Shown: positions 397 to 37,755, counted from the stretch's first letter. The stretch: DNA of 64,000 bases from Trypanosoma brucei (GCA_000002445.1 CP000068.1:1544199-1608198), one strand, 5' to 3'. Program-made: numbers and translations. Notes: a model not told the origin generated them from the sequence alone.

Positions 397-1999
397 TTAA
401 AACAGTAAGGCCGTAAAAACAGCGGTCATCAGAGCCAATTACTTATTGACTAGAAAACTTCCATTTCGGCATTTCTCTGTATCCTTGTCATCCTCACCAT
501 CTTTGTCCTTTCTGAAACCACAAACGGGGGTTTGGCCTGCTGTGTTTTCAGCTTCGCATTTGGCTTTGTCAGTGCCGTGTTTGGTGCACCTGTCTGAAGC
601 AGTTTTTCTCATCTTTCCCTCCTGTTTCTTGAGTTGCTTTTTCTGCTTCTTTTTTGCTCTCTTCACTCAATGTGCACCTTTTCTTTGGTTCTTTTGCTTC
701 GGCGTCCCATTTGCAGGATGGTTTGCACTCTGTGTTTTTGTTTATCCTATTGCATTTTTCTTCGGCTTCTTCTTGGTTTTGTTTATTGTTTTCTGCTGCT
801 ACTGCTGCACCTGGCGCTTTTTGGGATTGCTGCTGTATAGCCATTGCATTCAGCTGCAGGAGGTTTGTTAGGCTTTCATTGAGGCTGGTTAATTGAATCT
901 CTGCCTGCAAAGTAGTGCGTTGCTCATCCTTTAGTGCCTGTTGCTTTTGAGCTGCTTTATCAAGAGCGCTTAGCCATGTCGGCTCCTGTATCGTGTTTGC
1001 CGCACTTACAAACGCTACACATGGACCTGTGCCTCCCGCGTCAGCGCCGTTGCAGTTGCCCGCTGCCCCTGCTGAGCCGACGTATCCTATGTATCCTACG
1101 GCGCCGCCAGTCCCTTTCGGTTCGTATAGCAGCGCCCTAATGCTGCTGCCGGCCTGTGCTATGTCCGTTTGCTGGTTAGCTTTATCGTGGTTGCCTTCGC
1201 TGCTGCAGTGTTCCGTTATTTGTGTCCACGCTGCTAGTGGTTTGCCTTGAGCCCCGAAATCCTGCTCTGTAGCTTGGGTTTTGTAGCGTGCCGCGGCGTT
1301 GTTGCTGGTACTGTCCGAGGCGCATAGACATGTCATGGTTTCTGCTAGTGAATTTTTGCTTGATGAGCCGCTTTTGCTGTTGGTGCCGCAGTGCGCTTCC
1401 CTGGTCGCCCCTGTGCCGGTTAGCTTGAGGTTGACTTTGTTTCCGCCGGGCCCGTATATTGCTTCCTCTAAGGCCGACTTGATTGCGGCGGCAGCGTCGG
1501 CTTCTTCTAAATAGTCTTTGGCTTGGTCCGCTAGAGTTTTCATTAGTTCGACGGTTTTGTTTATTTGCATGTGCAGTGGGCTCGCCGGCTGCGCCGCGAT
1601 CTTGAGTTTCTGTTTTTCTTCTGGAGCTAAATTTTTTAGGTAGTTGGCTGCCTCTTGATACTGTGCCTTTGAGCTTCCCTTGCACTTTTCAGGAATCTCA
1701 GAGTCTCCCGTTGCCGCTTCTCCTGATGTGGTTGTTTTGTCTGCCATTTTTGCAATTGCGGAGAGCTCGCTTAGAATTAAAGCTATGTGTTGTGTTCTAA
1801 GAGCCGCATCCTTCGCTGCCGCAGACGGCTTGTTCTTACTTTGGAGCTTTGTGGCAGCCAGCACCACGTTGCATAGCAGTCCAAATGTTTGTCTGTTTTC
1901 ACCTTTGGTCGCGGTTCCCGCTTCAGTGGCTGCCGCGTACGTTATAAGCAGCAATGCTACCGCCACTACCGCTTTAGTTGGCCTTTGGTCCAATCGCAT
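397..1999 (-). pseudogene. VSG: VSG (A-type N-terminal domain) pseudogene. A frameshift near 569-666 separates the CTD tail, and an in-frame TAA interrupts the GPI signal (..NGSFLVNK*LALMTAVFTALLF*).
   Basis: The 476-aa ORF 569..1999 starts with a signal peptide (MRLDQRPTKAVVAVALLLITYAAATEA) and has the GENRQTFGLLC and ALYGPG..CLCA motifs plus a Cys-rich CTD. ORF 439..666 in another frame carries the C-terminal end. A 16-mer-like 3'UTR element lies downstream. Confidence 0.75.
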
Positions 2000-2162
2000 C
2001 TCAGTTTGTGTCTAGTGCGTTTCTTTCAGCCTGGATCCGTAGGTAAAAGTGTGAGAAAGATGACGGTTGTTGGTTTTTCCGGCATGTTTTTGAAGTACTT
2101 CGCCTTTAAAAGCTTAGGGTGAGCCAGCTGTTCTGGTGCTCGTTATTTTTGACAAAATAACT

Positions 2163-3260
2163 TCACCATGGACGTTTTGGGACGTCACTTCGACTTAATA
2201 AATCTGGCGGCCCATTGGAATGGCGGCTCGGGTGAAGCCTTTGCTGCGGTTTCATTGTAATACTGTCGCAAACAATACGGTTGCCATTCACTTCCATGGA
2301 TCGCATTAAAATTCTTTTCACATGCATTACATAATGACAATCTTGCATATCCACCGTTAATAACCCCTCAATTTTAAATTTATTCTTTATAACTTCCACG
2401 ACCATAATATCTTCATTGAGTGCTCTAAAATCAATATATGTTTCGACATTTCTGAATTTAATTTCTGATTTTACTAATTTTATCAAAAGCTCATAATCAA
2501 CAATTTTCTTAACTACATCCCTTGATAGTGTGGACGCATAACCTATTGTGTGCCATGTAATTTCGTCACTAAATTCTTTAGGATAACCAACCGCTCTTGC
2601 CACATTCAATTTCTCCATTGGCAATATTTCAAGGCACTGTAACAACAATGGCACCCTCATAAAAATATTATCATCTGCTTTCATTATATAAGGGTTTGTT
2701 GGCTTGAATAATTACACTGCAAATTTAAACTACAGATACGTGTTTCTACTCATCGTGAGTTCTGCTTCCCATCCCCAATTACACCCCTCTCCAACTTTTT
2801 TATCTGCTGTAGGATTTACATCGCAAACTGGTAAAATAATAATATCCTGCTTTAACTCCGCCTCTTCTTCAGCGATTACTCTGAGCTCGCAATTGTTATT
2901 TGTATGAGGTGAAAGGGTATATACTACAGACAACTTCCCAGTAAAATTATTTACCTTCCTTGCCGCTTCGGGATAACTCCAACACGTTTCCCTCTGAAGG
3001 TTGCGCCTTCTGAATCTCCCATCATTATCTATGGAAGGTATTCCAGCTACAACCAAATAATCGTCGGCTTTCCAAATCATCCTTACATCTTTCGAAACAA
3101 ATTTAATACACTCATCCTCAACAACTTCTAGTGAAATAGTGTCACACACGTCAAATAAGCTGTATAGTGACGTTCCTAAATTAACAGAAATAACAATTAA
3201 AAAAAGTAAACTATCATTAACCAAATAGTTTGCAAATACTTTATAAGATGCTATTCCCAT
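2163..3260 (-). pseudogene. ESAG-like / glycosyltransferase-like subtelomeric type-II membrane protein gene, split into two ORFs (2730..3260 and 2163..2684); family uncertain (ESAG3-like?).
   Basis: There is an N-terminal hydrophobic segment (SLLFLIVISVNLGTSLYS) and an IWKADDYLVV motif reminiscent of the GT DxD region. It is related to the ORFs at 25036-26001 and ~55700-56560, and an internal 540 bp is duplicated at 12591-13130. Confidence 0.35.
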
Positions 3261-3924
3261 ATTATTAGAAAACTATTAATATTTGTAAAATCAAAAACGA
3301 TATTTAGAAAATAAGTAAATGCTCTTCACCAAAGTGTTTACATAAGCAATTCCAAGGTATTGTCATGATGTAGCTGTTAAAAAGTCTATGTTAATATTCT
3401 GGAATTTTTATATAACCTCTCCTCTATATTTAGTTTTAGTAGTTATCTAGAGCCACATATAGTGCTTCTAAACAATATAAATCCTTCTGTTCTCTAGAAT
3501 TATTCACATTTTCCTCCAATGTATTTTTGTTTAATTACAGTAGTTACCTGCATCTATGTGTTCAGAAACGCTAATAATTTTACTGTTTATTTGTAGTAAC
3601 TACGACTAACATCCATTTTCGTGACTCTCGCATCACTATAACTTTTGAAACTTATGTAGTTGCCGTCTTGGGCAAAATAATGACACAGTATGGGCTGCAC
3701 ACTTCATCTTCTCTCTTACTTATTGTACCCTCTATCATCTCAATGTGCATAATGGTGTACACCGTTACATTTGTGCTCGAATTTACGCCTCTACAATACT
3801 CGTTTCCGTCTGCCTCCTTGACTCAGCTGCTCTTCACATTATTTACTTGGTCTTGTCGCGCCCTTGACATTGTTTCGACTGTTGCTATTGCGGTAAACCA
3901 TTTAGTATCTACAAACACTAACAT

Positions 3925-4000
3925 TACAATAATATCAGTATATACACACTCACAACACTCACCTATCATCATCATCATTATTATTATTATTATCATGGTA
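3925..4000 (-). repeat. 70-bp repeat (single unit with a short TAA/TGA tract), the upstream boundary of the VSG cassette at 397-1999
   Basis: + strand gtatatacacactcacaacactc...atcatcatcattattattattatt is the reverse complement of the canonical 70-bp repeat. Confidence 0.8.
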
Positions 4001-4224
4001 ATAACATCTTAAACTATCTTCACTATTTTTATTTGGATTGTAAACCTAAATTACTTCTAATATTCATAAAATAAAGAAAGTAAACTAAATTATAATATCA
4101 CTCATTTTTTATACCTTACTCCAAATTGTTTTATACCAATAGGCCACTATCATAAATATTTCATATGTTTGATATTTTTTAAATATTCACAATTTTCAAT
4201 TTTTTGCAAAGTTTTTATTAAAAA

Positions 4225-7269: not shown

Positions 7270-8748
7270 AATTCTTAAAGTTGTTAAGCTAGAGGAAAAA
7301 CTGCAAGCAAAAAGGGACTTTAATTACAGCTGAAAGAACCGTTCCCTCTTTAACTTTGCACTCTTTCTTTTCTGCGTTACAATCGCATTTTGTTTTGTCG
7401 CAATCTTTCTCTTCGACGGCTGTGAAAACCTCGGCTTTTTTATCCCCGTCTTTCTTATCGTCTTTTTGTCTGGTTTTTCGCTTTGTTTGAGCTTTTCCTC
7501 TGAGCCTGATAACTGAGCTTTTTCCGCTGCTTCTTTGCCGAGATAATATGCTAATACGGTTACACCATCAGCTGTCCCTGCCAATTCAAAGGGAGTCTTT
7601 TTTATTGGCATGTTCCTTATTTTTATGTCAATCCTTGTCTTGTCAATAGTGTCTGTGACTCTTTGCTTGAATATTTCTGGCTTTGCGCCGAAAAACTTGT
7701 GAACAAGCGCTTTCCTTTCGATTGCATCTTTTGGAAGTGGTGTGTCTGGTGATCTTATATCAGTTAGGGTTTCTGCTAACCGGTTTTCAGCTTCCAGTGT
7801 CGACAACGGGCGGTTGTGTGGAGGTGTATATGCAGGTTTCGGGGTACGCCTTAGCTGGCAGATAGCTGCTGCTAGGGCTGTTGGTTTGTACTGGTGCGGC
7901 TTACTGTCGTCGCTGATTTTTGGGCACGCCGTCTGGTCCCCTGTGCTCTTTAGTGCTATCTTCGTTTTTTTGTACGAGTGCGCTTTGTGTTCGACTTTGG
8001 GTAGCAGTGCGTTGGCTTGATTGGCGCCGTCAAAGTCTTGTGATGCCGTGATGCAGGCGCCGGTCGTGTGTGCGGATCCTACCATGGCTCCGTTTACTTC
8101 TCCTTTACTTAGGGACGTCGCTTCTAGGACGTGTCTGCTTGCGGCCGTTGCCGCCAGCGTTATGTGCTCGGTGGTCTGCCATTTGACGTTAGAGCGCTTT
8201 ACGTCGTCTTCTTCGCTGTCTAGGCTGCAATTTTGCGCGGTGTACGAGATTTTGACAGCCGCCTTGCAGCCGTGTATGGTGTTAGTTGAGCCAATTGTGA
8301 GTGGGCTGCCAAGTTTGCTTCCGCTCTCTAAAGTTATTGTTTTGGTTGCTGTATCGTGGTCAGTTAGGTGCACCGCTTCCTGTATTTTTATTATCTCCCG
8401 CGTCGCCGCTACTTGTTCGTTGTGAGCTAGTGTTGCAGAGATTAGCTGTGATACATCTGCCTCGGCGATTGTCGCTAGCGCTTTGAAGGCCACTGCTGTT
8501 ACTGCGTCGTCTGACGAAGCTGCTGCTATTATATATGCCACCGCAGCTTTAACAGCTGTAGTTGCAGCTGATCCGTCGCTCAAATAAGTCGTTTTGATTT
8601 TGTCGTTGATTAATTTAAGATATCTGGCCGTCTGGCCGGGTGTGGATACAGCCTGGCTGGCGGCGTCATCGTCGCCCATGGTGCCCGTTAACTGAGCTGA
8701 TTCCACTAGTATTATTAGTGGCTGTCTCCCTGCGTTGGTGTAAAGCAT
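7270..8748 (-). pseudogene. VSG: VSG-like gene with a B-type N-terminal domain intact over 474 aa; the CTD is frameshifted (a Cys-rich CTD is readable in another frame at 7324-7480).
   Basis: ORF 7324..8748 has the Ala/Thr-rich helical N-terminal domain and conserved Cys. The in-frame C-terminal 80 aa are basic and Cys-free, while the alternate frame gives CDKTKCDCNAEKKECKVKEG. Confidence 0.6.
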
Positions 8749-10024: not shown

Positions 10025-10196
<172 letters not shown>

Positions 10197-10407: not shown

Positions 10408-11949
10408 TTAAAATAGTAATGCCACAAAGGCAACCGACATTAGAGTAAATTTTTTATTAAAAAAAATACTGGAATCATTGCAAGCAATATTTTTCCATTT
10501 ACAGCTTTTGTCATCCTCACATTTTGCCTTATCAGTTCCGTGTCTTGCATATCCAGATGTATCTGTTCCTTCTCCTGCTTTTTCTACTGCTTTTTTGGCT
10601 TCCTCGCTCAATGTGCACTTTTTGTTGTGTTCCTTTGCTTCGCCGCTCCACGTGCATGGCGGTTTGCAATCTGTGTCTTTTTCTTTTTTATTGCATCCTT
10701 TTTCGGCTTCTTCTTGTTTTGTTGAGTCACCTGAGGCTGTTTCTGCTGCTGCTGCTGGACTTGCTGTTGGCCGCTTAAGCGCTTCCATGCAGTTTAGTGC
10801 TAGGAGGGTCGTTAGGGAATTATTGAGTGTGTGAATTTGTGCCTGTAGTCGAGTTATGGCGGCCTGTTTCCCGTGTAGTGCTGTTTGTTGTTCCGCTGCC
10901 GTCGCCAGTTTGCCGAGCCATTCTGGCGGTGCTATATCGGCTGGCCCGGTCCGAAAGCTTGCGCAGGCACCACTGTTTCCGCTGTTCTCACCGTCGCAGT
11001 TGCCTGTGCCCTGACCAGCGATATGGCCTATGATGCCGGTTTTGCCTGTCGTACCTTTGGCTGCGTTTAGTTCGGCCTGCAGTGCAGCTGTAATTTCAGT
11101 TAGTCTTTGCCTGTGTTGCGTTGCTGCGGTCCCGACCGTCTTCCGGCAGTCTTGCAGTATTGTCGACCAGTCCGTTATTTCTTCGTTTTGTTCCCCGAAG
11201 TTTTGGTTGCCTGTTGGGGTGCTGTAGCACGCCGTGTTTGTTCTCGGTCCTGCGGCGGTTGACGCGCACAGGCAAGCTATTGTTTCCGCGATTGATCTTT
11301 TGGCCGATGCGCCTGGGCCGGTGTCGCCCTTGCCGCAGTGGGTCTCCCTGTCCCCGCCGGCGCCTGGCAACTTCGGCTTGGTTGTTTTTGTCGTTACACC
11401 GTAGATGGCTTAAATCAAATGTTTTTTGACTGGGTCGTTGGTGTCGCCGTTTGAAAATATTTTGTGTGTTGTAGCAATCTTTATGAGTTTTTGCAGCGTG
11501 TTGTTTATCTTTTCCTTGAATCCGCGGTTTTCTGTGGTGGCCTGTAGAAGCTTTTGTTTTTCTGCTTCTGGTAAGCCTTTGAAATATGTTGCAGCTGCCG
11601 TGCACCGAGAAAGTTTTTCCTTTTTACATGCAGTTGAAATAGCGTCATTGTCGTCTGGTTTTGGCTTGCTGTATGTAATAAGCGACGCAACTTTGCTTAT
11701 AGCTGTTGGTTGTTCCATGATTAATGACATGAATTGTGAATTTTGTGCTGCCTCCTTGGAAGCCTGTGCTGGTGCCGGTGCTGCTGAGCCTTCTTCCTCC
11801 GCTAACACCACTGCACATAACAAACTAAATGGGCCTCGGTTTTCTCCTTTGCTGGGTCCAGCTGCTGATACGTGTGTTGCTATTGACACGAACACCGCAC
11901 ATATGGCTACTAACAACATTGCTTGGGGTTTTTTCTGACGCTTAAACAT
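10408..11949 (-). pseudogene. VSG: VSG (A-type) with an intact CTD and GPI signal, but a stop/frameshift at ~11370-11410 between the N-terminal ORF (11410..11949) and the rest.
   Basis: The N-terminal ORF has a signal peptide and GENRGPFSLLCAVVLA. The C-terminal ORF ends ..SSIFFNKKFTLMSVAFVALLF, a canonical GPI signal. Confidence 0.8.
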
Positions 11950-12590
11950 TGCTGTTCGCTGAAGTACTAATTTTCGCTTGGTTAGGGACTTGTTGGTTGT
12001 ATAACAGTTGAAGATACATCGATGCCGGGTTGTATTCTGGTTAATTTCCGCAGAAATGCTGCAAATTTGAAACCGTGTAATCTCGCTATGGTTGAAGTGT
12101 TACTTATTATGCCGCTTATCAGCCGTTATTGCCCGTTTTAAAGGTAATACATCTGACTATGCTCATTGTTTTTTCTTTTCGTTGATGGTAAGGAACATAA
12201 TGGTACTGCCATAAAAAGTGACAGCTTCAGCAATTCATTTATAAGTCGCTCCATTCGTATGATAACAGGTGGCAGCTTCAGCTTGTAGTGAGGTGCATGT
12301 TCGGTGTTTGCCACTGCGCCTTCAACGTGGAAATCTCTGCTTTTGCTTATTTTTGCTGCGAACTTTCCGTGATTTTGGGAATGGCGCAGCGAAACATTAT
12401 GCTTGTGTGAAGCCATGACCGCTTAAGTGTCACCTTATGTGTCGGAAAGATATACGGTGATTGATAAGGTTTAAAAGTCTTTAAATTTTCAACCGCTGTG
12501 TGAAAACATCTCTTAACAATATATTGACATAAACTCAGACGTAAAAAATACCCTTTCATTTATACAGCTGACACGTTTCCTCACATTCCC

Positions 12591-13148
12591 CACATTCAAT
12601 TTCTCCATTGGCAATATTTCAAGGCACTGTAACAACAATGGCACCCTCATAAAAATATTATCATCTGCTTTCATTATATAAGGGTTTGTTGGCTTGAATA
12701 ATTACACTGCAAATTTAAACTACAGATACGTGTTTCTACTCATCGTGAGTTCTGCTTCCCATCCCCAATTACACCCCTCTCCAACTTTTTTATCTGCTGT
12801 AGGATTTACATCGCAAACTGGTAAAATAATAATATCCTGCTTTAACTCCGCCTCTTCTTCAGCGATTACTCTGAGCTCGCAATTGTTATTTGTATGAGGT
12901 GAAAGGGTATATACTACAGACAACTTCCCAGTAAAATTATTTACCTTCCTTGCCGCTTCGGGATAACTCCAACACGTTTCCCTCTGAAGGTTGCGCCTTC
13001 TGAATCTCCCATCATTATCTATGGAAGGTATTCCAGCTACAACCAAATAATCGTCGGCTTTCCAAATCATCCTTACATCTTTCGAAACAAATTTAATACA
13101 CTCATCCTCAACACCTTCTAGTGAAATAGTACCACCTTCACCAAACAA
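12591..13148 (-). pseudogene. Internal fragment of the ESAG-like gene; near-identical copy of 2601-3141
   Basis: About 540 bp are >99% identical to 2601-3141, with flanks diverging on both sides. Confidence 0.6.
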
Positions 13149-14129
13149 GCTTTATAGCGAAACACTAACGCTAGTTCCCATAATAATAAAGACTAAACTA
13201 ACCGGTGTATCATAAATACTTCATATATACTTCATACCTTCCTATTATCGTACTAATGAGAAGCTTGTAATTCATTTAAAAAATAATAGACAACATCGAT
13301 AAAAGAAGTGTTAGTTCCATAAATCTATTTAGTGAAGGAATCCCTGTTTACATATATAAGTCATCATATGATATTGTTATGATATAAGTGTTAAAATGTG
13401 TATTTTCCTGTCTTCAGCATTTATTTGAGAAACATATACTGTATTTGTTTTTGCTTTAAAAGTGAGACTCAGCCAAACCTAATGCAACAAAGCCGACGAA
13501 CTACACTTTTCCTTACATTATTCACATATCCCCTATAAGCAATGTCATAAAAATTTCGAATCTTAGTTGCGGTAGGTAATAGAGAATTACTAAAAATTTT
13601 GCTTCTTTCCTGTGCTAAAGACCCTTACCATTCTCTTTCATTATGAGACTTCAATAACCATAAATTTATGAACTACTGTCCCTTTTTTTCGATCATCATC
13701 TATAGAAGCAGAAGATATCTTTTTTTTTGCGCAAAATATGGAACACGATCTATGCTGATGCATTTTTCCATCTGAGGTACATTTCCACGCCTGCCATTCT
13801 TCACTTTGTATTTTATGTGTTTAATTTTACTCTATTGCTGCTACCAGTACCGATGACATAACAATCTGATTTTACCATTCACTTTATTTTGATTTTGCAT
13901 GATAGCCATATCCTTCTTTTTGTGCATGATAATTCCCATAATTATATCGATTTTAAGGTGCGTATACTCCATTTCCATCTACCCTTTTTTTGCTTTTTCT
14001 TTCATAATATTCCTCTTACTCTCCTACTTACTATCGCATTTACTATACCCATCATTCTCAACCCACACTTGTCATCGTTTCAAATGCTTCTGTTTCGGCT
14101 GTTCATTCTGCTATTACCGCTACTATAAT

Positions 14130-14404: not shown

Positions 14405-14519
14405 TATTTCATAAAATTCTCTCAAAATAAAAATATTCATAAAAATCATAAAATTGAGCAAAAATATTTAGATTTTTATAATCCAAATATAAAACAAAAA
14501 TCACAAAATCAACAGACAT

Positions 14520-15955
14520 AAGAGAAAATTTCTTATTGACAAGAAAACTGGAATCTTTACAAGCATTATTTTTCCATTTGCATCCATCTTTTCAGTGTTC
14601 TTGTTTTGTCTTTTCAGAGCACTTTGAAGTTGCCCCTGCTGCTCCTACTCCTGTTTGTGTGGCCTGTTCATTTACCTTTGTCGTAATAGACTTGCAGTGT
14701 TTTTCATCTGTTTCGTCCACTTACCATTTTCATTTTTCATTGGTTGTGCAGTCAGCTGCTTTTTCTATTGCTTCGCATTGTTTTTTGTTGGTTTCTGTTG
14801 TGTTTTCATTCGGTGGTTTGGCGTCTGCTCTAGTTGTGGTTGGCTTGGCTACGCTAGAACTCCTGTAAATTTCCCACGCTGTGGAGTTTATTACTTTCAA
14901 TTGCGTTAGCAGGCTGTCGATCCGCCCATGTGTCACCAGTCGTTTGTCTGGTTAGCCCACGGCCCTTTCCAGATCCTGCATTCAGGTAATGCCGTTGTCG
15001 CTGTCACCAAGTTAGTGCTTGTAATTTACGGACATGCCATTGCTGCCATTGCCGTCGCATCCTTCGCTGTTTGTGGGTTTACTGAGTACAGCACAGGCTG
15101 GGAAGGCGCTTATGCTGCTAGTGTGCTTTCCCATTAAGTTTTTGACGCTGCCGAGAGCGGCTGCTATGCTGCCAGTTGTTAGCGCTGTTTCTCTTGTTTT
15201 CAGCCGGCATTTTGTTATCATCGTCTGGAGTTTCGTTTCCTTGTCTCCTTTGTGGTCGCTGTGGCCTTTTGCTGTTGGCGTGGTCCCCTTCTCACACGCA
15301 GCGGTAGCGCTTCCTTCCACGCCGACTCATAGACAGTATAGAGCTGTTGTCAAGGGCTTGTCTACTGTTGCAGCACAGGCTGTTCCGCCGCAAGTTTCGT
15401 CCACACTGGTTGCTACTGTGGATCCGTCAAATGCAGTTTTCTTCTCGCCGTGCAGCGCTTTCTTAATTTTATGCAGGGCTAAAGTTTTGGTGGTGCTATA
15501 CGCTTCTACTTACTGCTCCAGTGCGTCTTTTACTGCTTTCGCTGCAGCGTGTACTTTGATTAGGTTTTTGTTTGCACGTTCACGGTAATTACTTTTTGGT
15601 AGCCTTAGGATTCTGGGCTTGCCTGTTGAGTGTTCTTTTTCGTGTACCTCTTCAAGTTTCTTTCGCCAGGCTTCCTACTCACTTTCTTTGCTGTTGCTGC
15701 CTTCTGGTGTCAGTGCGCCATCTTTGGTTGTGTAGTATGTGTCCGTTTCTGTAGAAATATTTGGGTTCTCGATTTCGTTTAAGGTGGTCTGTACTTGAGC
15801 ATCTGCAGTTATGGCTTCCAGTTGCTTCGCTGCATCTTCTAGGGACAAAACGTTGCATATTACCGCAAATTCATTGTCGTTATCGTTGGCTGTTGCTGAT
15901 ACCTGGCTTATTACTGTATACAACAAAGCCCAAACTGTGAATAAAGTTTCCATTG
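14520..15955 (-). pseudogene. VSG: VSG pseudogene with several frameshifts
   Basis: The signal peptide METLFTVWALLYTVISQVSATA starts at ~15955. CTD pieces lie in ORFs 15012..15320 and 14730..14936. GPI-tail coding (aatttcttattgacaagaaaactgg) is at ~14525. Confidence 0.55.
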
Positions 15956-16162: not shown

Positions 16163-17060
16163 CTACTGGACACACCGGCCGTTGTTAGCGTCCTTGTTTC
16201 CTTTGCGTCCACACCAGGGGCTGCCAATGCCACTGACCGTCCCAAGTATATGCTGCTGTTGCGCGTTTCCTCCTTTTTTCCTGTTTATTGACTGTCTGAA
16301 GTTGGCCCAGGCTATTTGAACTTCTAGTGGATTGAGTTTGCCTGGGCTTCCAAATTCAGTGCATTTGCTTAGCAGTTTGTCTGCTGCAGTCTTATCGTTT
16401 ACGTTGGAGCTCCAGTTGTCGTTCGTCACGGTGCTTTCTAGGCTGACACCGCATGCTTTTTTCGTGCCTAAGTTCAGGTGGTCTCGCCCCGCGCATAGAC
16501 AAAGCAAGTCGGTGGCTATTGAGTTTCCCGCTTTGTTGTTTGCTCCCCCATCCTTTTCTGAGCACGCCTGTGCCCGTGTCGCGTGGCCTATCATCGCCGG
16601 TTTGCTTCCCGTGTTTCCGGCTCCATATAGTGCTTCTTCTGCTAGTGCGGCTGCATGCTCAGCTGACGATTTTGGTGGCTTATTCGCTGTGTTGAAAGCT
16701 TCGAGCGCTCGGTCGGCCGCTTGCCTAATGTGCTCCACTGTTTTGGGTGAGTGCTTTCCTGCCGTCCATTTTTCTATCGTTTCTTTAGACTTTTGTAACT
16801 CTTGTTTTGCTGCTTTGTAGAAAGGCCAGATTGATGCCTTGTTTTCCAGTGTCTTGCGTTGGTCTTCTGTTAGCCATGCCCATTCCTTTGACGTGTCTAT
16901 GGCTGTTACGAATATTTTGGCAAGATGCTTAGATTTAGCGCACCGATGTATACGGAGGTGGGTACCGATGCCTTTTTGATTGGGGGTGCCTCGATGGCGG
17001 CCCTTTCTAAGTTTGCAATGTTGCAGAGAGAGAGCGGAATTCTGCTGTATTGTTGTGTGT
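16163..17060 (-). pseudogene. VSG: VSG N-terminal-domain fragment (A-type; ALYGAG..CLCAG), lacking a signal peptide and CTD
   Basis: ORF 16163..16738 plus upstream in-frame pieces; it abuts the start of the downstream VSG with no 70-bp repeat between them. Confidence 0.5.
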
Positions 17061-18414
17061 CTGACTAGTGAGCACCATGTACCTGTATAAATTTCACCAG
17101 CACCGCGAGTGTCACCATTGCTAGTACCTCCTCTGAACTCAGTGGTATCATGACCATCTGAGCCTCCGCTCAGTGATCTTGCCTAGTGATAGACAGATGG
17201 GTTGAGATATGGCCACAATAACCTGTTTTATGAGAATTTTCCCTTAATACTCTAGTTTTTATGTTATACCTGCTAGTAAATTTTTAAAGCCTTTTGCCAT
17301 TAAGCTATAAAACTCTTATATTTTTTCCATCAACCGCATTTTCTACTTCTATAATATGTTGAACACCTTTATGGATATAAAACTTCAATTTTTTATACTT
17401 GTTAAGCATTGACACTGTCCATAAACTATTCACCATTACATGCCGATTTTACAACAATATACTGCTGTTTTTTACAAACAACGGTCCTTGGCAGTTTCTC
17501 TTTCGAATTATAGAATATTTTATACCTATTTCTGTTTGTATATCGCAAATCTTTTCCAAGCCGAAATGTCTTTGGCTCTACACTTCCTTTGGTTGCTGCA
17601 TTAAAGCCGGATCAGCAATAAAATTCATATGAATTCTGCTCTCTTTCAATACCGTCATATTTTCAGCAGTATACTAGTAAGAAATTGGTGGTATATCATC
17701 ACTGACTTTTTTGATTCATAGAGATCTTCTAACGATTCATATATTTGTTATTTTTAGTATTTTGCTTGTTTGTGTTATTCTTTTGTCGTAAGGAACAATC
17801 CATTAGTCGTTATTGCTTTAAAAGTAGCACCCGATAATATCATATTGTTTCCAACAAAAATTAACCACTGTTACTATATCAGATGAGAAGAATAATTCGA
17901 GATTACCTCACAGTTACTCATTTTCTTTTTGTTACTTCCTCTTCCTAACATCTTGATATTAGAATCCGCCATTAGTGTGAAACCTACATTCGCCAACATC
18001 ATCTCTTCGATAACATTTACCCATTTTCAATAAATACAGATTATTATCGGCTCCTTCTGTTGTATTATTTTTTCTCTGTGATGTGCTTTCGTTCATCTCA
18101 TGATTTCACTACTTATTTTCCTTTCTTATCTTTCGTATTCTGTTACTGTTTCTGCGTATGAAGTAGCAACGTTTTTGTATTTTATACTGCACTCTGTGTT
18201 TCCATCAACTCCTTGTGTATGATAATGCTAATCATCATGTTTTATCTCACGTGAGCATATTTTGTTCCTTTCACTTTATGAAAATTACAGTCTTTCTTTT
18301 AATAATACTCCTCGTATTTACTCACACCCATTTCGTTCCCATCGCTGTTTTAAGTGTCTTTACTTTTGACCAACCACTTGGGCTTCGCTACCATTCTTCC
18401 AATATTGTTAGTAT

Positions 18415-20471: not shown

Positions 20472-20973
20472 CCCTGGCGATGCCGGCCACATCAATGTTG
20501 TGCCAGGGTCCAGTACCCCGTATCATCGAGGGAAGCCAAAAGCTAGCAGCGTTCCTTTCATGGGGAACACTGCTTTGCTCCGACTACGGCATCATACAGC
20601 ACAGGAATCAGCAGCGTCTTGCTCGGACACCATTTTTCATTTGTCTGTCCCTGGACACGTTGCTAGCATGCCATCAGCAGTATCATCCGCACTAAGATGC
20701 TGCTGTCCGGTGATGTGGAACTCCAAAAAAAGGATTGCCAATTGACATCTTTGGGAGAGTCCAGGGTGGGAGGCTTCTCGCCCCATCTGCTGTATTCCGT
20801 TCATATGCGGAAATACAACAAAAATTATAGAGGGTGTGTTAGGATGAATAAAAAAGGGAGACTCTGCCACAGTCGCCAGACCGATAGCATCTCAGGGCTC
20901 TACGGTGATGGCTGATAGCCGCGACAGTGGGGGGAAACTCCCACGAAGGCACGAAGAAAATTCCAAAAAAGAA
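20472..20973 (+). mobile_element. RIME: RIME (ribosomal mobile element), a non-autonomous ingi-family retroposon of ~502 bp
   Basis: It starts ccctggcgatgccggcc. The 3' ~230 bp (20730-20960) are near-identical to the 3' end of the ingi fragment at 61180-61410. It ends in an A-rich tail and is flanked by a 12-bp direct repeat. Confidence 0.8.
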
Positions 20974-20985
20974 ATCCATTCTTGT
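20974..20985 (+). repeat. Target-site duplication, right copy (atccattcttgt)
   Basis: See the left copy. Confidence 0.75.
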
Positions 20986-25035: not shown

Positions 25036-26001
25036 TCAAAGTTTATTTGGTTTAAATAAATCCCCCTTTTTGAGCGCATAACCACAAATTCTTTCATATC
25101 GAAAATCCCAATTCTCTCCACCTACTACATAAGTTTCTATTTTTCCCATATCCTTCGAATTAAGTTGTCTTCCTTTCAACTCTTTATACCAAGTAAAATT
25201 TTTCACAATCAATTTCGTCTTCTCCTCCAACGCAATAGGCTGACCTGGAAAATGAATAAATGGAGCCCCTCCAATCACCACAATACTGGGAACAGTAAAT
25301 AATATCTCCTCATAATCCAATCCAATCATTCCTCTCTTCAAAACAAATCTCTGTCCAACAGCTTCGTCCTGAATGACACTCCATATTAGCAACGGTTTGT
25401 AAATACTCTGCTCTGACTACCATTTCTCACCCCCTTTAAGAAATTCTCCAAATATGAATTCAAATTTATTAAATGCCCAAACTCTGGTTATTATACCGTC
25501 ACCATTAAGATAAGGTTTGTCACTAAGGGGTGACTTCAGTGAGCGAGGTAGCTTCTTATTCTATTTCTTTCTATGGCAAACATTAAAAACACAATATATC
25601 TCTCCATTGCTTTATGTGATCTGAATTCAAAATTAAGTCCAACTGAGGCGCATAACATTCTGATATTGTCATGAATATAATAGGGGAAATTTGCTTCTCT
25701 TTTACTATATCTTCTCTACTAAACTTCTCTTCATTTTCTGAACTTTTTTGTATAAAATATTCCACAGCATTTTCATATTTTTCTCCTTATCACTAACAAT
25801 GACTTCATATCCATCAAAAGTTATCACAACATCTCCATCACTTGCATTCTTACTTTCTAAGAATTCTATTACCCATCTAGACGTCTTAACAAGGCTATGC
25901 AAACCTCCTATTTCAATTGTAATAATTTCAGCATGGCTTAGTTTGGCACTCAATATGAGTCTACACCATCCTTGTGTTGCATGAGTTTGAACGACAACCA
26001 C
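25036..26001 (-). pseudogene. ESAG-like / glycosyltransferase-like pseudogene broken into three ORFs; same family as 2163-3260 and ~55700-56560
   Basis: RWVIEFLESKNASDGDVVITFDGYEVIV aligns with ECIKFVSKDVRMIWKADDYLVV of the copy at 2730-3260; the downstream pieces share blocks with 55950-56440. Confidence 0.35.
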
Positions 26002-26624
26002 AAACGCTCTTGTGTTCTTATGTTTGTTGTCTATTAAATTTGTTATGTTATTTACTTTATCATATTAAAGAGATATTGAGGTTATACACAATAAATGTAA
26101 TAGTGGCGTTAATAGGACAGTTCCTAGGATACCAAATTTCATTCCCTAACATACTAATAAAATTTGATATGTTATAAGGAAATGTAAGAATTATTAATAA
26201 AAAAGCTTGTAGTGCTACTAATCTGTTTGCTTATATAATTAATGCATCTGTAATGTTATGATATATCTGTTACAATTTGTTTGTTTAGTATGTTTAGCTT
26301 ATATTTTAACACAAATGTGTGGTTTCTGTTTTATAGGTTATAATTGGCCACATGCGGCGCCGCTGCCTTTTTAAATCTAGTCTTCCCTGCATTGATAACC
26401 CATGTCTATGCATTGTTATTGGAGTTACAGTAGTTTGTTGCACTGATTAATTCGAATATGCTAATAATTTTATCGCCTTAGTGTGCAAAATACTACAACC
26501 ATTTACTACTATCAAGTTCCTCCCATTAGCATGATTTTGCGATACACTTCTACTGTTGTCGTTGAAATAATCTCCTCCGTAGATTTTATTACATTTTGAG
26601 TGAAGGTTAGGGCACGAAACGCTC

Positions 26625-26665: not shown

Positions 26666-26961
26666 AAAATAGAGAAAAAATATAATTATATTAGTACTCA
26701 TTTTTCATATCCTATAACACTATTGCTTTCAATATATTTGACACTTTCGTTCCCAAATTTCGTATTATCAGACTATTTTCACTAATCTTAGCATATTTTC
26801 ATTACAAATTGTTAAATCTTTAAACTTTAGAAAATTTCCTATGATTTCATTAAATTAATCAAAATTTCTTGAAATACTTTCAAAAATCACAAAGGAATAG
26901 TCCATGAAAACAAATATGTTATTTAAAAAACTAGAAACTTTGCACTTGCCTTCTATCAATT

Positions 26962-28467
26962 TCAAAAAGCTTTTTTATCTTTTGGAATATCACCTTTTGC
27001 TAAAACAAAATCCTCAGGAGTTTTTGCTAGGCCACACTTATCTGTTGTTGCTCCTGCAGCTCCCTCTTCTGTTCCTGCTGTCTGGGCTGCTTGTTGTTCT
27101 ATCGCTTTTACGGGATCTAATGAGCATTTTTTGTTTATGTCAGTGGTATTCTCGTTCCATTTGCAGGGGGATTTGCAGGTGTTGTTGCTGGTAAGCTTGT
27201 TGCACTCTCCATCGCTGATTTCCATGTTCACAGTTTTGCCTGGCGCAGCTTGCCCGTGGGCCGTCTGTAAGTGGCCTTTGATGATTTTTGCTATTTCCCC
27301 TTCCCTGCTTAATTTTCTGGCCTGTTCGGCAAGTGCTTTGAGCGCTGCTTTCGTGCTTTCTGCTTGCACTATTCTACTTTCCCTGTCTGCAAGGTCGGTT
27401 GCTATGCTGTGCGGTATTGTCAGCCATGGTGTATGGGGTGGTATTGAGCCGTTGTTGTCGGCGTATCCAGTGAATTTGACGCAGCGGCCGCTGCCCTGAG
27501 CACCTGTGCAGCCGGTTTTGGTTGCCCCAAGGTAGCCGGTACCGCTGTTCGTGGTTATGAGTGCCACGATTTCCTCGATCGCCTGCCTCAGCTCGTTTTC
27601 TTTTAGCTGCCGTGGCGGTATTTTGCCACACAGCTTTGTTATTTTTCCTGTGTTCGATGGTGTGTCTGGGCTGCCGGTTGCCCACCGGTCGGCTTTAGCC
27701 ACCGCCGGTGTGCACACGTAGTCGGCTTGGCTGTCTGTTTCAGGCGCACATACGCAGCTTAGCGCACCCATGAGGGAATTTGTTCGGGTTCCTGAGCTGC
27801 CGGTCGTGCAGGCTGTTTGGCGGTCGCTGCCCGAGCTTGCCCCGTATATGCTTTGGTAGTCCGCCGTGTCGACGTCCTTCGAGCCGTCGCCAGTTACCGC
27901 TTCTGTTAGCTTCTGTTTGAGCGTCTTACCTTTTAGCGAAGGTAGCTGGGCTGGCGCCGCCGGAGATTTTGCTAGTGCGGCCGCCGCGCTTGCCAAGTTT
28001 ATCATACGCGGCCTTATAGTGTCTTTTACGTCTTCAGGCAAGCTTTCAAACGTTATTTTGTCTTCTGCCTTTGTTCGGTCCGCCTTATAAAGACTTCTTA
28101 TTGCTTCCTTCCAGTCCAACCAGTATTCTTCCCAGTCATCACCGTGTTGGTCCTTCGGTGGTAGCTCGTCCTGCCAGGCGTTTTTTTCACCTGTTTTCCA
28201 GAACACTTGCTTCCATGCTTTTGGTGCCAAACTCATATTTAGTTTGATGATGTCTTTGAAGTCTTGGTTTTTTAAGTTCGGTTCCTCTGGAATTGTAAGG
28301 TCAATACGAGCCAGCTTTGTTAATTTGCAGAGACCGTCGAACACTGGTCGGTTTTGGCCACCTTCTATGTTGGTTGCTTTACCAAGTTTGGTAATACTGA
28401 GAACTATGAATGCTACGGCTATTATGCAGCCATTAACTGTTCGCTTTTGCTCTTGACTTCTCTGCAT
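26962..28467 (-). CDS. VSG: VSG ORF of 501 aa with signal peptide, N-terminal domain and CTD, but no hydrophobic GPI-signal tail in frame (ends ..DIPKDKKAF)
   Basis: MQRSQEQKRTVNGCIIAVAFIVLSITKLGKATNIEGGQNRPVFDGLC ..LNMSLAPKAW.. CTD CNKLTSNNTCKSPCKWNENTTDINKKC. Confidence 0.7.
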   Translation of the reverse strand: MQRSQEQKRTVNGCIIAVAFIVLSITKLGKATNIEGGQNRPVFDGLCKLTKLARIDLTIPEEPNLKNQDFKDIIKLNMSLAPKAWKQVFWKTGEKNAWQDELPPKDQHGDDWEEYWLDWKEAIRSLYKADRTKAEDKITFESLPEDVKDTIRPRMINLASAAAALAKSPAAPAQLPSLKGKTLKQKLTEAVTGDGSKDVDTADYQSIYGASSGSDRQTACTTGSSGTRTNSLMGALSCVCAPETDSQADYVCTPAVAKADRWATGSPDTPSNTGKITKLCGKIPPRQLKENELRQAIEEIVALITTNSGTGYLGATKTGCTGAQGSGRCVKFTGYADNNGSIPPHTPWLTIPHSIATDLADRESRIVQAESTKAALKALAEQARKLSREGEIAKIIKGHLQTAHGQAAPGKTVNMEISDGECNKLTSNNTCKSPCKWNENTTDINKKCSLDPVKAIEQQAAQTAGTEEGAAGATTDKCGLAKTPEDFVLAKGDIPKDKKAF

Positions 28468-30341: not shown

Positions 30342-30357
30342 GTGTTAAAATATATCA
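30342..30357 (-). promoter_or_regulatory. VSG 3'UTR 16-mer, exact
   Basis: gtgttaaaatatatca, about 35 bp 3' of the stop at 30392. Confidence 0.85.
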
Positions 30358-30391: not shown

Positions 30392-31972
30392 TTAGAAAAC
30401 CATGGCCACAAATGCAGCAGAAACCACGCTGAGGGCGAATTGTTTGTTTACTAGAATAGAGGAATCTTTGCATTTTTCTTCAATCCAGCCGCAATTGGCT
30501 TTTTCACCCGGTTTCTGACCCTCGTTTTCCTTTTCACAGTTTGCTTTATCTTTGTGCTTTTTGCACCTATCTTATGGTGTTGATGTCTCTCCAGTTTGAC
30601 TTTGTGTTACAGGGGCGCCATTTGCTGTGGCTTTTGTTGCATTATATTTGCACCTTTTTGTACCATCGCTTTCTTTTTCATAACTGCATTCATTTTCTTT
30701 GTTGCATATCTCTTCCGTAACTATTTGATTGCATTTGTTAGTCGGCTGAGTCCCCTGGTCGCCTTTGCGGTTGACATTGTCGCTGCTCGTCTGACCGGCT
30801 GTTGGAGGTGCGGTCTTCTGTAGCAGTGCTGCCGCATAGGCTTTATTTTTGGCCACAGCAAGTTGCTGTTCGAGTGCCGTCGCTTCTGCGATTGCTTTTT
30901 CTTGCTGGCGCAGATCGTCGTGGAGAGCTAGCAACTTCTGGGCCCAGGGGATCGCCGCAAAAGCCTTGGTGGGCGTCCCGTCATAGCCAGCGTACTTTAT
31001 GCATATTCCTTGTGTTTTGTCGCCGTTGCAGCTGCTTCCTGTTTTGAGAGCCCCCATGTAGGCGTCGCCGCCTACTCTTCTTATTAGGTTTTTGATCTTG
31101 GTTATGAGACCCATTAATAGGCTGGATGTTAGGTGCGTTTTTGCTGGGCCGGCGCAGTGCTTTACTATTTCCTCGAATCCGTCCTTGGTCATGGCGTTGG
31201 TGCTCGATGTCCACTTGTGAGTATCTGCCTGGTTTCTTGCGCACACTTTTTCTGCTTGGGCGTTGTCTTGGCCGCAGATACAGTAAATAGCGCCTGCGAT
31301 TGTTGTTGTTTTAGCTTCGCTGCCTAGCCCGACGCATATCGCTTCCCTTGCTTGTGTGTTCAGACCGTCATAGTTTCTCGTTGGCTCAAAGTCTGGTGTC
31401 TCCTCTTGTTTGACCCCGTATATAGCTTCGTTTAGCGCTGCTTTAATGGTTTCCGGTGTGTGCTTTTTTCCTAAGCTTTGTTTGTTGGCGATCCGCGTCG
31501 CTAGGAATTGTGCTTCTGCTGCTATTTGTGCTACACTTACTTTGGCCCCTGCCTTTTCTATTGGGTTTAAGGTTTCAAAGCCGCTGTTTTTTATCTCTAG
31601 TGTCGTCCCTTCCGCTCCTAGTTTTTCTGCTGCGGCGGCCCACTTTGGCCAACTTTTTTTCCAGTAGCCAGGGTCTGTTGTGCCTGCCGGAAGCTCTTTT
31701 ATCCACTCTTTTTTCGCCCCGTCCTTACTGAACCGCTTCTTCCACGACTCATCTGCTAAGCTCATGTTAAGGGCTAGAACGGCCCCTTCTAGGGCAGCTG
31801 TCTGATCCGGAAACTGGTTAATGGTTATGTCCGATCGTGAAATATCGACAATAGCGCACAATGCACCAAATTCCTGCTCGTTTGCTCCTGCCGGTATGTT
31901 GCCTCTTGCTTGCTCTGCCGTTAGTGCTAAGGCCAGCAGCGCCGTCACTGCCACCGTCGCTTTGGGCGTCAT
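30392..31972 (-). pseudogene. VSG: VSG, otherwise intact, with a single in-frame TAA at 30572-30574; the 466-aa ORF is followed in frame by 59 more residues ending in a perfect GPI signal.
   Basis: ORF 30572..31972 is MTPKATVAVTALLALALTAEQARG... Past the stop, the same frame reads [59 protein letters not shown]. Confidence 0.8.
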
Positions 31973-32959
31973 TTAGGCTTTTGTTTTTTTGTTTTACCTA
32001 CTTTAAAATTGTCCCCGGCGTAGTTGTTCGCCGCTATACTTGGTTAAAAGTTGTTTACTGCCGCTTGCAGGTGCTTTCGCCGGGACTTTCTTGTACAATC
32101 TACGAAACACAGAAGAAAAGCAATTATGATTGGTCGTGTTTGTAGCTACAAGCCCTATTTAGAGCATCTTGTTCCAAAGCCGTATGAAGTTGTTGGTCTG
32201 CCATGTCAAATGGCATTTTGGTATCTGCTTAGCTGAAGTTAGTGGCTCGCGTGGTGTTGTCGTCTATGGTCTGGTCGTTGCCGTCCGCCGCGGTGTTAAG
32301 GTGTGTGTGCGGTCCTGCTACGGTGTCTTGTGTTGTTACTTGTATGCACTCGTTTCGAAATGACGATAAATAGTCGGTGGTTACGTTCCTTCTTATTTTA
32401 GTAGTTGTTACTGTCCTTGGGTTTGTGTCTGACACAGTCAGAAAACATCTTTGTCACCTTTTCCCCATCTACAATGTTCCATTCTCATACCATTAAAAAA
32501 AACCACATTCAATCTATCTGTCGCCACAGACTTAGTCTTGTCGATTAAGATAGGAACTTACCATAAATTTAAAACCCCATTCGGAACAATTATTGATAGA
32601 GTAGCACATATTCATTTTTGTGGGAAATGTGGTGTAAAATCTCCTCTTCCTATATCATTTTTTACGTGATGAGCTACTACGTATTCTGTAGTTTTCCTCT
32701 GTATTTTCTTCCCCCTTTTTCAATCTCTGTCGCTACTTGTACGAATGACATAAAAAAATTATTTAGACTGTTTACTGCATTCTGTCTATCCATATTGGCC
32801 AATCAATTATCTTCTCGTATAATGATTCCCATTGTCACGCTCATTTATGTAAATACTCACGTTCCATCTTCCTCATTATTTAACTTATGTTACACTATGC
32901 CCATTGTTTTAAGTTCTTGTATTTTTTCATCCACTTTGTTTTCAATTCTATAGTCATTA

Positions 32960-33015
32960 TAATATTATTATATACACACTCCAAAAACTCCCCTATTATT
33001 ATCATCACCTTTATT
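32960..33015 (-). repeat. 70-bp repeat (single, degenerate)
   Basis: atatacacactccaaaaactcccctattattatcatcacc. Confidence 0.6.
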
Positions 33016-35839: not shown

Positions 35840-36060
35840 GCATAACTCTTATTATAATATTAGTATATACACACTCACAACACTCTTCTATTATTATTAT
35901 CATAATTATTATCATTACTTCTCTTATCATAATATTCGTATATACACACTCACAACACTCTTCTATTATTATTATCATAATTATTATCATTACTTCTCTT
36001 ATCATAATATTCGTATATACACACTCACAACACACTCTCCTATCATTATTATAATTATTA
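35840..36060 (-). repeat. 70-bp repeat array of ~3 units
   Basis: agtatatacacactcacaacactcttctattattattatcat, three times. Confidence 0.9.
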
Positions 36061-36422
36061 CACCAATAATCAACTTTAATACCAAATATGTTAATTTTAC
36101 TTGAATTAAAAACTTTAAAATATGCATATTTCTTTCAAAAGTGTTAAAATAGGTCAAATTTTATAAATTTTTATAAAATTCTTAAAAAGCTACCAAAGTC
36201 ACAAAGCAACACCAATTAGAGCCAATTTCTTATCCAAATCAAAACAGGAACCTTTGCATTTTTCTTCTATCCAGCCGCAAACAGATTTCTCATCTGCTTT
36301 GACATTCTTGTTTTCTGCCTCACAAGCCTCTTTTTTCGTGTGATCGTAACACTTTTTACCAGTCTGGGTCCCTCCTGTTCCTGCTTGTGTTGCTTGTTGT
36401 GCTGCTGCTGTCGTATTCAATT
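35952..36422 (-). repeat. Segmental duplication copy A (~470 bp, >99% identical to 39080-39549), spanning 70-bp repeat, 3'UTR and the last ~75 codons of the VSG
   Basis: Direct reading of both stretches shows one mismatch or indel. Confidence 0.9.
36141..36156 (-). promoter_or_regulatory. VSG 3'UTR 16-mer variant (gtgttaaaataggtca)
   Basis: Duplicated identically at 39268-39283. Confidence 0.6.
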
Positions 36423-37755
36423 CGCAGTGTTTTCCTGTTTCATCAGTTTCTTTCGTCCATTTGCAGTTTCCATTCTTTCTGCATTCTGTTGCTTTTTCTA
36501 TTACTGCGCAGTTTTTAGTTACTTTTTCTGTTTCAGGTGCGGTCTTGTCGTGTTTTGCCGTTTCTATTTGCTGCGGCCGCTCGGTGTACAGCAGTGCTTG
36601 CACTAGTTGCTTTTTAGCTTTCAGTTGCCTTGCGGCCTCCTTTCTTATTTGCACTGCTTGCTCGTGTTTGCGCAGTTGGCTTGCTATCTCAGAGAGTCCG
36701 CTGAGCCACGGGATGTCCGTCACTTTCGCCGTGCCGTCCGTGCCGAGGTCAGTGTACTTGACACACATGCCGCCCCCTTGGAGGCCTGTGCATGTGCCGG
36801 CGATGGTTTTTCCTAGTGTTGCTTGACCGCTTTTCCTTGCTATCAATCCAGTGACTGCCGCTAACCGCGATTCTAGCGAAGCGGCTGATAGTTTATGTTT
36901 GGTTTTGAGATCGCAGAGCTTTACAGCTTGTGAGATTACTGTTGCCGGTGGTGCAGAAGCGGCGTTCCAGTCAGTTGTCAGTCCTGTTGTGTGTTCACAG
37001 GCTTTTTGTTCGCTGCCGGCTTTAGATTGGTCTGCTGTGCAGATGCAAATCAGGGCCGCCGTTACTGTTTTAGCAGCGTTGGTTTGTGTCGTGCCGTCGC
37101 AATATCCGGCCCTGTTGCTCGCTGTTGGCGATGTAAACAGCTTTGTTGCGGCAGCGGGTGGTTCGGCGTCTGGGTTTCCGCCGTAGATTTGCTCGTTTAG
37201 TAGTGTTTTCAGCTTTTCGTCATTTAGCAGATGCGTTTCGGGCGCATCGGCTGTCGCTAGCGACTCTATCGCTTCGGCCTCGGCTGTTATCCTGGCGACT
37301 GCCGCCCGAATTGACACACGCTGCTCCTGCGTCATTGCTTGTAGCTTGTGTTTTGTCAAAGCTTCTTTCTGTCCGTCTGCTTTTAATAGCGACTCAGCTG
37401 CGGTTTTCCATTTTGGCCACCTTCCGGGCCAGTCTTTGTGCTCCCTGAATTCTGCTTCCGGAAAGTCTCGCGGCTTCTCCCTGGCATCGGTTTGCCGGAA
37501 AATGTCAAGCCAGCTGCTATCTGCCAGCGACATATTTAGCTCTAGTAGATCTGCCATGTCTTTACCGAGTTGTGAGTCGCTCGACTCCAGAGCTGCGCGC
37601 CCATTTGCTAATTCGATTAAGCCGCAGAGGGCTCCTCTCTCCCGCACATTGTCGTCTGCTGCTATGTTTCCGCGCGCGGTCTGTGTCGTTAGAACTATAG
37701 CAATAACTATCGCCACTTGTAGATGACTGCCGTGTCTTTGTGGCAGTGGCGGCAT
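36199..37755 (-). CDS. VSG: VSG of 518 aa with signal peptide, N-terminal domain and CTD intact; the GPI signal is truncated by in-frame stops (..KLALIGVAL*LW*LF)
   Basis: MPPLPQRHGSHLQVAIVIAIVLTTQTARGNIAADDN..LNMSLADSSW.. CTD CKWTKETDETGKHCELN...[26 protein letters not shown]. Confidence 0.75.
   Translation of the reverse strand: MPPLPQRHGSHLQVAIVIAIVLTTQTARGNIAADDNVRERGALCGLIELANGRAALESSDSQLGKDMADLLELNMSLADSSWLDIFRQTDAREKPRDFPEAEFREHKDWPGRWPKWKTAAESLLKADGQKEALTKHKLQAMTQEQRVSIRAAVARITAEAEAIESLATADAPETHLLNDEKLKTLLNEQIYGGNPDAEPPAAATKLFTSPTASNRAGYCDGTTQTNAAKTVTAALICICTADQSKAGSEQKACEHTTGLTTDWNAASAPPATVISQAVKLCDLKTKHKLSAASLESRLAAVTGLIARKSGQATLGKTIAGTCTGLQGGGMCVKYTDLGTDGTAKVTDIPWLSGLSEIASQLRKHEQAVQIRKEAARQLKAKKQLVQALLYTERPQQIETAKHDKTAPETEKVTKNCAVIEKATECRKNGNCKWTKETDETGKHCELNTTAAAQQATQAGTGGTQTGKKCYDHTKKEACEAENKNVKADEKSVCGWIEEKCKGSCFDLDKKLALIGVAL

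Follow-up and report, generated by a model that had tools for sequence, protein, structure and literature searches.

The silent variant surface glycoprotein (VSG) archive of Trypanosoma brucei strain TREU927 is the closest described counterpart of the locus analyzed here (Berriman 2005 annotation; VSGdb, PMC1868767). About 4.5% of that archive is annotated as intact, and the others are atypical genes, pseudogenes with frameshifts and/or in-frame stops, or fragments; the VSGdb report also found glycosylphosphatidylinositol (GPI) signals to be more varied in silent genes. Our locus is a 64,000-nucleotide (nt) stretch of T. brucei DNA (GCA_000002445.1 CP000068.1:1544199-1608198), which we refer to in its full length as the window and in which positions are counted from the first letter. 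We focus on three of its VSG genes, designated I, A, and K, which a first-pass annotation had described as otherwise intact and disabled by one or two nonsense codons at or near the region encoding the GPI signal.

A second system close to this locus is 3' donation, in which a resident gene keeps its own 3' end when a silent copy is converted into the expression site. Of the expressed sequences studied by Hall, Wang & Barry 2013 (PMC3708902), 57% showed 3' donation; 25% of the boundaries fell inside the GPI-signal region, and boundary homology was 13-143 bp at >85% identity. The authors concluded that the process allows the use of VSGs with damaged C-terminal domain (CTD) regions; earlier work on 3' donation from the 1980s-90s, including the "incomplete basic copy" of Aline 1994, is cited there. 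The rescue of array VSGs that the first-pass annotation proposed is therefore an established mechanism. The evidence differs in kind, in that Hall et al. saw expressed products whereas we see silent donors, whose use we infer. Jayaraman 2019 and a 2026 Nature paper describe the same N-terminal domain joined to different CTDs and recombination that is strongly biased toward the C terminus. A third likeness is to mosaic VSGs formed from pseudogenes in T. equiperdum and T. brucei, where segmental conversion reaches damaged genes (Roth 1989; Thon 1989/1990; Kamper & Barbet 1992, as cited in the papers above). Mosaics recombine within the N-terminal domain between close donors, whereas a single crossover in the CTD would suffice for I, A, and K.

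The window is a subtelomeric VSG array of T. brucei brucei TREU927, the reference strain. All of its large VSG-like open reading frames (ORFs) lie head to tail on the minus strand, one per ~3.5-4 kb, and make up ~17 VSG units that we labelled A to R from low to high coordinates. The closest database matches are T. brucei VSGs throughout, and two ORFs match TREU927 entries exactly: 18657-20099 is XP_845142.1 ("VSG, atypical, putative") and 26965-28467 is XP_845143.1 ("VSG, putative"). Pfam domains in the window include VSG_B, A-type N-terminal domains (Trypan_glycop), and the C-terminal domain Trypan_glycop_C. The core of the 70-bp repeat occurs in 25 copies against 0 expected by chance. The 16-mer of the VSG 3' untranslated region (3'UTR; TGATATATTTTAACAC), which published work has established as indispensable to the stability of VSG mRNA, occurs 20 times at ≤3 mismatches against 1.3 expected, yet is perfect in only 3 of the ~17 units (B, F, and I). 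The architecture (70-bp repeat, ~1-2 kb spacer, VSG, then 16-mer) is that of the TREU927 archive, and so are the kinds of lesion, namely frameshifts, stops in frame, or both, and doubtful GPI signals; we find no difference of substance, and I, A, and K form a subset in which the first lesion falls in the tail. With the archive and 3' donation both published, the finding is already known in kind.

Readable N-terminal domains with broken tails

Each of A, I, and K is a VSG of full length interrupted by one or more frameshifts or premature stops. As the first-pass annotation had stated, their N-terminal domains are open, within ORFs of 476, 466, and 518 amino acids (aa), respectively, and belong to the B type (Pfam VSG_B; E = 7e-35 for A, 5e-80 for I, and 9e-66 for K). 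Trypan_glycop_C was matched in I and K, and the framework of four-cysteine CTD subdomains aligns with database VSGs in I and in the reconstructed tail of A. A GPI signal is recognizable in all three genes but lies out of in-frame reach, blocked by an upstream TAA in I, by a frameshift and an internal TAA in A, and by a frameshift within the signal in K; for this reason we class them as pseudogenes rather than functional members. A search for exact protein entries matching the ORFs of A, I, and K returned none, whereas the neighboring units F and H each have one, a difference that would fit annotation of the three as pseudogenes. Very probably, I, A, and K belong to the ordinary pseudogenes or "atypical" VSGs of the TREU927 silent arrays, in which the antigenic N-terminal domain is readable and the tail is broken.

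Unit I (30392-31972; ORF, Pfam, and alignment) has its N-terminal domain, two four-cysteine CTD subdomains, and GPI signal all in one frame. Its sole disabling lesion is a TAA at 30572-30574 after ...GETSTP, past which the second CTD subdomain is complete and a canonical GPI signal follows in the same frame, exactly as first described. VSG 3340 and other relatives have Ser at the aligned position, and a TCA>TAA substitution is the likely origin of the stop. It falls between the two CTD subdomains, with 60 codons still to run to the natural stop. A perfect copy of the 3'UTR 16-mer TGATATATTTTAACAC was found by motif scan at 30342-30357, and a single degenerate 70-bp-type repeat (GGTGATGATAATAATAGGGGAGTTTTTGGAGTGTGTATATAATAATATTATAATGA; ~32955-33005), missed at ≤3 mismatches, lies ~1 kb upstream of the gene. 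The closest N-terminal relatives of I (87-89% identity) have a different second CTD subdomain, and the more distant VSG 3340 has that of I; this disagreement between N-terminal and CTD relationships makes tail exchange visible in the family.

Unit A (397-1999; ORF, Pfam, and alignment) is open through its N-terminal domain and first CTD subdomain and carries two lesions in its tail. The tail reported earlier (NGSFLVNK, a stop, LALMTAVFTALLF, and a second stop) and its TAA at 439-441 are present, but they lie off the ATG frame, which runs instead into ...GGKDEKNCFRQVHQTRH and a stop. What had been missed is a 1-nt frameshift at or next to an A5 run (603-607), located by comparing frames: ...ETGGKDEK is read upstream, and ASDRCTKHGTDKAKC... 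/ ASDRCTKHGTDKAKCEAEN... downstream in the other frame. The span of the unit (1603 nt) is no multiple of 3, and once one base is removed the tail aligns with the cysteine framework of the VSG sequence P0022, where the TAA, inside the GPI signal, falls on a Gln; a CAA>TAA change would account for it. The damage in A is thus a frameshift plus a nonsense codon, and donation of the GPI signal would be too little to restore the gene. A 70-bp repeat lies upstream at 3938-3960, and the 16-mer has 2 mismatches. A relative of A in another strain, EATRO1125 (P0021, VSG 1125.4162), ends in ...CAFRIKRVNQNPKKKCAEMEVFY, which matches an out-of-frame reading of the type of CTD found in unit A; this gene also has an open N-terminal domain and a frameshifted tail.

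In unit K (36182-37755; ORF, Pfam, and frame path), the two stops reported by the first-pass annotation, TGA at 36199-36201 and TAG at 36190-36192, are there, but neither appears to be a lesion in its own right. A one-base shift after a T3 run (36203-36205) restores ...IGVAFVTLVAF and a stop, the canonical VSG tail, with what would be the natural stop at TAA 36182-36184, and the minimum-lesion path through K contains a single frameshift at ~36204. The most economical reading is that one T was lost from a T4 run and that the shift created both stops as by-products. The omega-site region of K, where GPI attachment is expected, has missense changes as well (CKGSCFDLDKK versus the usual CKDSSFLLNKK). 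Four copies of the 70-bp repeat lie upstream (38922-39162), and the 16-mer again has 2 mismatches.

The faulty 3' end of K occurs twice in the window. By self-comparison, a 473-bp block (35950-36422) is 100% identical to 39077-39549 of its upstream neighbor, unit L (39309-40868; frame path and self-comparison), whose N-terminal domain is heavily damaged (four lesions). Within the block lie the second subdomain of the CTD and the faulty GPI signal, a 3'UTR whose 16-mer is mutated (TGACCTATTTTAACAC), and, downstream, the first 70-bp repeat; beyond its upstream edge, identity is patchy and then gone, and the N-terminal domain of L is unrelated to that of K. The faulty tail of K has been copied onto its neighbor, in what looks like a recent 3'-end conversion between silent genes; such conversion thus operates within the silent array too and can spread defects.

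The lesions therefore comprise one C>A-type substitution in I, one homopolymer indel and one substitution in A, and one homopolymer indel in K, so that disabling by nonsense codons only, as first proposed, holds for I but not for A or K. In A and K a lesion lies in the GPI signal itself; for I, with its stop ~36 codons upstream of the signal, "near" is generous.

Excess of 3' lesions and its possible causes

To map lesions in 16 full-length units, we joined the start codon to the expected stop by whichever path incurred the smallest number of stops and frameshifts; codon log-odds decided between paths only when these tied. The N-terminal domain and hinge contain 22 lesions in 19.7 kb (1.12 per kb), and the CTD and GPI signal contain 22 in 4.6 kb (4.81 per kb), a 4.3-fold difference in density; five units have also lost the natural stop. 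An open N-terminal domain with a broken tail is found in 7 units (A, C, H, I, K, M, and N), with F borderline, and the reverse in 2 (D and J). The CTD share of lesions, 50% (22/44), exceeds the share expected from length (19%; p = 3e-6), from nonsense mutability (23%; p = 7e-5), and from homopolymer count (33%; p = 1.4e-2), and for the 7:2 discordance between units p is 2e-4 when expectation follows length and 8e-3 when it follows homopolymer count. The position of the first lesion across units was not significantly non-uniform (Kolmogorov-Smirnov [KS] p = 0.16); we regard the density and discordance tests as the informative ones. Decay of the 16-mer, a non-coding element, points in the same direction as the 3' excess, because expressed VSGs require the element. 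A 3' excess of lesions exists in the window, and its size beyond mutational bias is modest. The earlier suggestion that selection on the C terminus is relaxed is accordingly supported in part, by the excess and by the decayed 16-mers, but weakened by the part that composition plays.

Several considerations weigh against reading these genes as products of a relaxed C terminus that serve as donors. The 3' bias comes from one window and 16 units, with p ~0.014-0.04 against the most generous null. Minimum-lesion counts are lower bounds, and the border between N-terminal domain and CTD (the first CTD Cys) is a convention. Homopolymer runs of ≥5 are 2.2 times as frequent in the CTD as in the N-terminal domain (14.4 versus 6.5 per kb), and stop-creating substitutions per codon are 1.3 times as numerous (0.486 versus 0.368), so part of the excess arises because the CTD is richer in homopolymers and stop-prone codons. 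The tail that K and L have in common spread by hitch-hiking and did not decay independently in each. For A, a search of database proteins returned no close orthologue (best, 68% identity), so its lesions lack independent confirmation. Finally, we know I, A, and K here from silent copies, from which their use as donors would follow at one remove.

Taken to its limit, the compositional argument becomes an account in which mutational bias and chance explain everything: the A/T runs and near-stop codons of the CTD, together with copied tails, would generate the pattern under selection that is equal across domains. The enrichment of the CTD in homopolymer runs and pre-stop substitutions agrees with this account, as do the location of several frameshifts in A5-A7 or T runs, the reduction of the K and L tails to one event, and the KS result for first lesions. 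However, even if the 33% homopolymer share is granted to all lesions, the 22 of 44 in the CTD are in excess (p = 0.014), and units with broken tails outnumber those with broken N-terminal domains 7:2 (p = 0.008). Moreover, nonsense lesions should track the 23% share, not the 33%, and the non-coding 16-mer has decayed in most units as well. We consider a purely mutational origin unlikely, while taking it seriously as a contender.

Another challenge to the pseudogene reading concerns K. Like F, K may not be dead: its shortened GPI signal, ...KKLALIGVAL, could still work and make K a functional "atypical" VSG. The 518-aa ORF is uninterrupted, is 96% conserved in EATRO1125, and is listed there as a VSG protein, and the annotators of the archive grant that the GPI signals of silent genes are varied and of uncertain function (PMC1868767). 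Set against this, the hydrophobic tail is down to ~8 residues, the omega-site region (CKGSCFDLDKK) carries several missense changes, and the 2 mismatches in the 16-mer affect an element essential for VSG mRNA stability. The canonical tail also returns in the shifted frame, so the present frame is the damaged one, and K, unlike F and H, has no exact protein entry. A functional K is, in our judgment, a poor prospect, and we continue to treat the gene as a pseudogene.

The VSG repertoire of EATRO1125 was sequenced independently, and we compared it with the window at the level of protein entries. Two counterparts of I (1125.1164 and 1125.4736; 95% identity) are both 466 aa long and both end ...GETSTP; the counterpart of K (1125.456; 96% identity) has 518 aa and ends ...LALIGVAL; and those of H (1125.1035 and 1125.4184; 96% and 99% identity) have the same short end, ...KDKKAF. 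These shared end residues rule out sequencing error for the three units, whose lesions, judged from the protein ends, are real, heritable, and older than the split between TREU927 and EATRO1125. Orthologue comparison, a check that the first-pass annotation had called for, thus excludes read errors. It also confirms that sister-strain orthologues carry the same stops, which is one half of the outcome that the annotation had named as counting against its proposal, the other half being an absence of evidence for mosaic use.

Amino-acid differences between the strains are bunched in patches of 50-100 residues (337-405 in I, 319-369 in K, 201-259 in H, and 213-311 in F), with few scattered changes outside them. 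Such bunching is the pattern expected of short gene conversions in a silent archive, and, together with the K/L block, it shows that conversion of the sort seen in mosaic formation also acts on silent copies. Because the clustering leaves only ~25-30 independent changes, a test for purifying selection on the N-terminal domains was dropped; nonsense changes among the differences between the strains numbered 0 against ~1.6 expected, which is not significant. A literature text search on the names of the EATRO1125 orthologues returned nothing informative.

The identical lesions of I, K, and H in the two strains, beside N-terminal ORFs that are still open, are compatible with a further reading in which selection maintains the tail lesions because they act as "locks": with activation of the whole gene blocked, only the N-terminal domain could be transferred, which would help to set the order in which archive VSGs appear. 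Shared descent and the few independent point changes (~25-30) explain the same facts without such selection, and we think it highly improbable that the lesions are locks.

We give almost no credence to the stops and frameshifts being sequencing or assembly errors, even though three of the indel lesions sit in short homopolymers and a report on another T. brucei assembly documents apparent assembly frameshifts (PMC8445201). Besides the EATRO1125 entries, which refute this explanation for I (twice), K, and H, the lesion of K is present twice in the window (K and L), and the stops of I and A are substitutions. The source of the window is, we presume, the finished, Sanger-sequenced TREU927 reference, which also counts against error. 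Programmed read-through was rejected, as no feature supports it and two of the three lesions are frameshifts.

Other units and non-VSG elements

Not all of the array follows the pattern of I, A, and K. Unit D (10408-11949; frame path) is a counter-example, with its only stop (11410-11412) in the N-terminal domain ahead of an open CTD and GPI signal; N-terminal lesions are also present in B, E2, G, and J, and within 397-37755 these units and D do not fit the pattern first described. The CTD of D (10408-10700) has Tyr in place of the first Cys of the second subdomain (SGYARHGTDKAKC versus SDRCTKHGTDKAKC in A), and the substitution suggests that this seemingly intact CTD is probably non-functional too.

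Unit F (18654-20099; ORF identical to XP_845142.1) is read without interruption to an atypical GPI tail, ...LLAFLTLGANI. Just before the GPI signal it has a Trp (TGG, W459) in NTTWSNSF, where unit J has Gly (NTTGSNSFVIHK). Its EATRO1125 counterparts, 1125.431 (98% identity) and 1125.4782 (95%), both end (458 aa) where F has W459, just before the GPI signal. Either a stop reverted to sense in TREU927, or independent changes struck one codon.

In unit H (26882-28467; ORF identical to XP_845143.1), the N-terminal domain is open, a frameshift near 26964-26970 precedes the last CTD Cys and the GPI signal, and the natural stop is lost. The 501-aa ORF, named "VSG, putative", ends before that last Cys, and the remainder is found in the other frame (...CKLIEGKCKVSSFLNN...). 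Unit C (7289-8748; ORF and frame path) is VSG-like, with an open 474-aa ORF and a frameshift in an A5 run (~7467-7480) ahead of a short CTD; a Pfam search of it gave no usable match. Unit M (42491-44004; Pfam and frame path) has an open A-type N-terminal domain followed by a hinge stop at 42817-42819 and several CTD lesions, and unit N (46441-47885; frame path) has an open N-terminal domain and a second CTD subdomain with a frameshift and stops.

Two further units illustrate other routes of decay. The A-type unit O (50207-51742) is readable in a single frame interrupted by five in-frame stops (51638-51640, 51449-51451, 50768-50770, 50492-50494, and 50264-50266), and its decay is by substitution alone, with no indels. 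A start-less N-terminal-domain fragment, E1 (16166-17182), adjoins the start of the heavily damaged VSG E2 (14490-15953), and the pair looks like a fused or rearranged cassette.

Several elements unrelated to VSGs lie among the units. Between VSG cassettes is a pair of non-VSG ORFs (2166-3272) for which a Pfam search returned no match; part of this region, 2600-3170, is duplicated ~10 kb away at 12590-13160 with 98% identity. A second non-VSG remnant is present twice, at 25039-26147 and 55779-56709 (72-76% identity), upstream of VSG units G and P, and its sole Pfam match is a weak, sub-threshold one to the glycosyltransferase domain GT_PLOD (E = 0.008). The only large plus-strand ORFs are at 58891-61140, in a G+C-richer region, and encode RNase H and C2H2 zinc-finger domains, for which reason the region looks like a retroelement inserted in the array. 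Beside it, a 254-bp piece (61162-61415) is repeated at 20725-20975 with 92% identity. Perfect trinucleotide tracts on the plus strand, (ATT)45 at 10062-10196 and (TAT)113 at 62247-62585, lie beside 70-bp repeats.

Proposed use of damaged donors in antigenic variation

As they stand, I, A, and K could not make a GPI-anchored coat protein, to judge from the published mechanism. They could contribute only through a gene conversion into an expression site that starts at the upstream 70-bp repeats and stops short of the lesion, within the CTD; the resident gene would then retain its own tail, GPI signal, and 3'UTR 16-mer. The stretch available for such a crossover, from the first CTD Cys to the lesion, is ~160 nt in I, ~305 nt in K, and ~150 nt in A, where the frameshift sets the limit. 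The idea that these copies are first-line donors sits uneasily with the published hierarchy, in which array-derived, segmentally converted or mosaic VSGs follow the early telomeric and minichromosomal genes and appear late in infection.

The excess of tail lesions would most likely reflect three causes. The Lys/Glu-rich, A-run-rich CTD would be more mutable; faulty tails would be spread by 3' conversion within the array; and constraint would be weaker on the part of the protein that is replaceable and non-antigenic.

To the published picture, the window adds that lesions common to two strains are stable states rather than errors and that a faulty tail can pass to a neighboring gene by conversion. 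It also adds that mutability explains part of the 3' excess, so that genome-wide claims of relaxed selection on the VSG C terminus need to control for it. More broadly, the window illustrates a textbook feature of antigenic variation in T. brucei: most silent VSGs are damaged, many of them only in the buried, replaceable tail, and segmental gene conversion is how they come into use.

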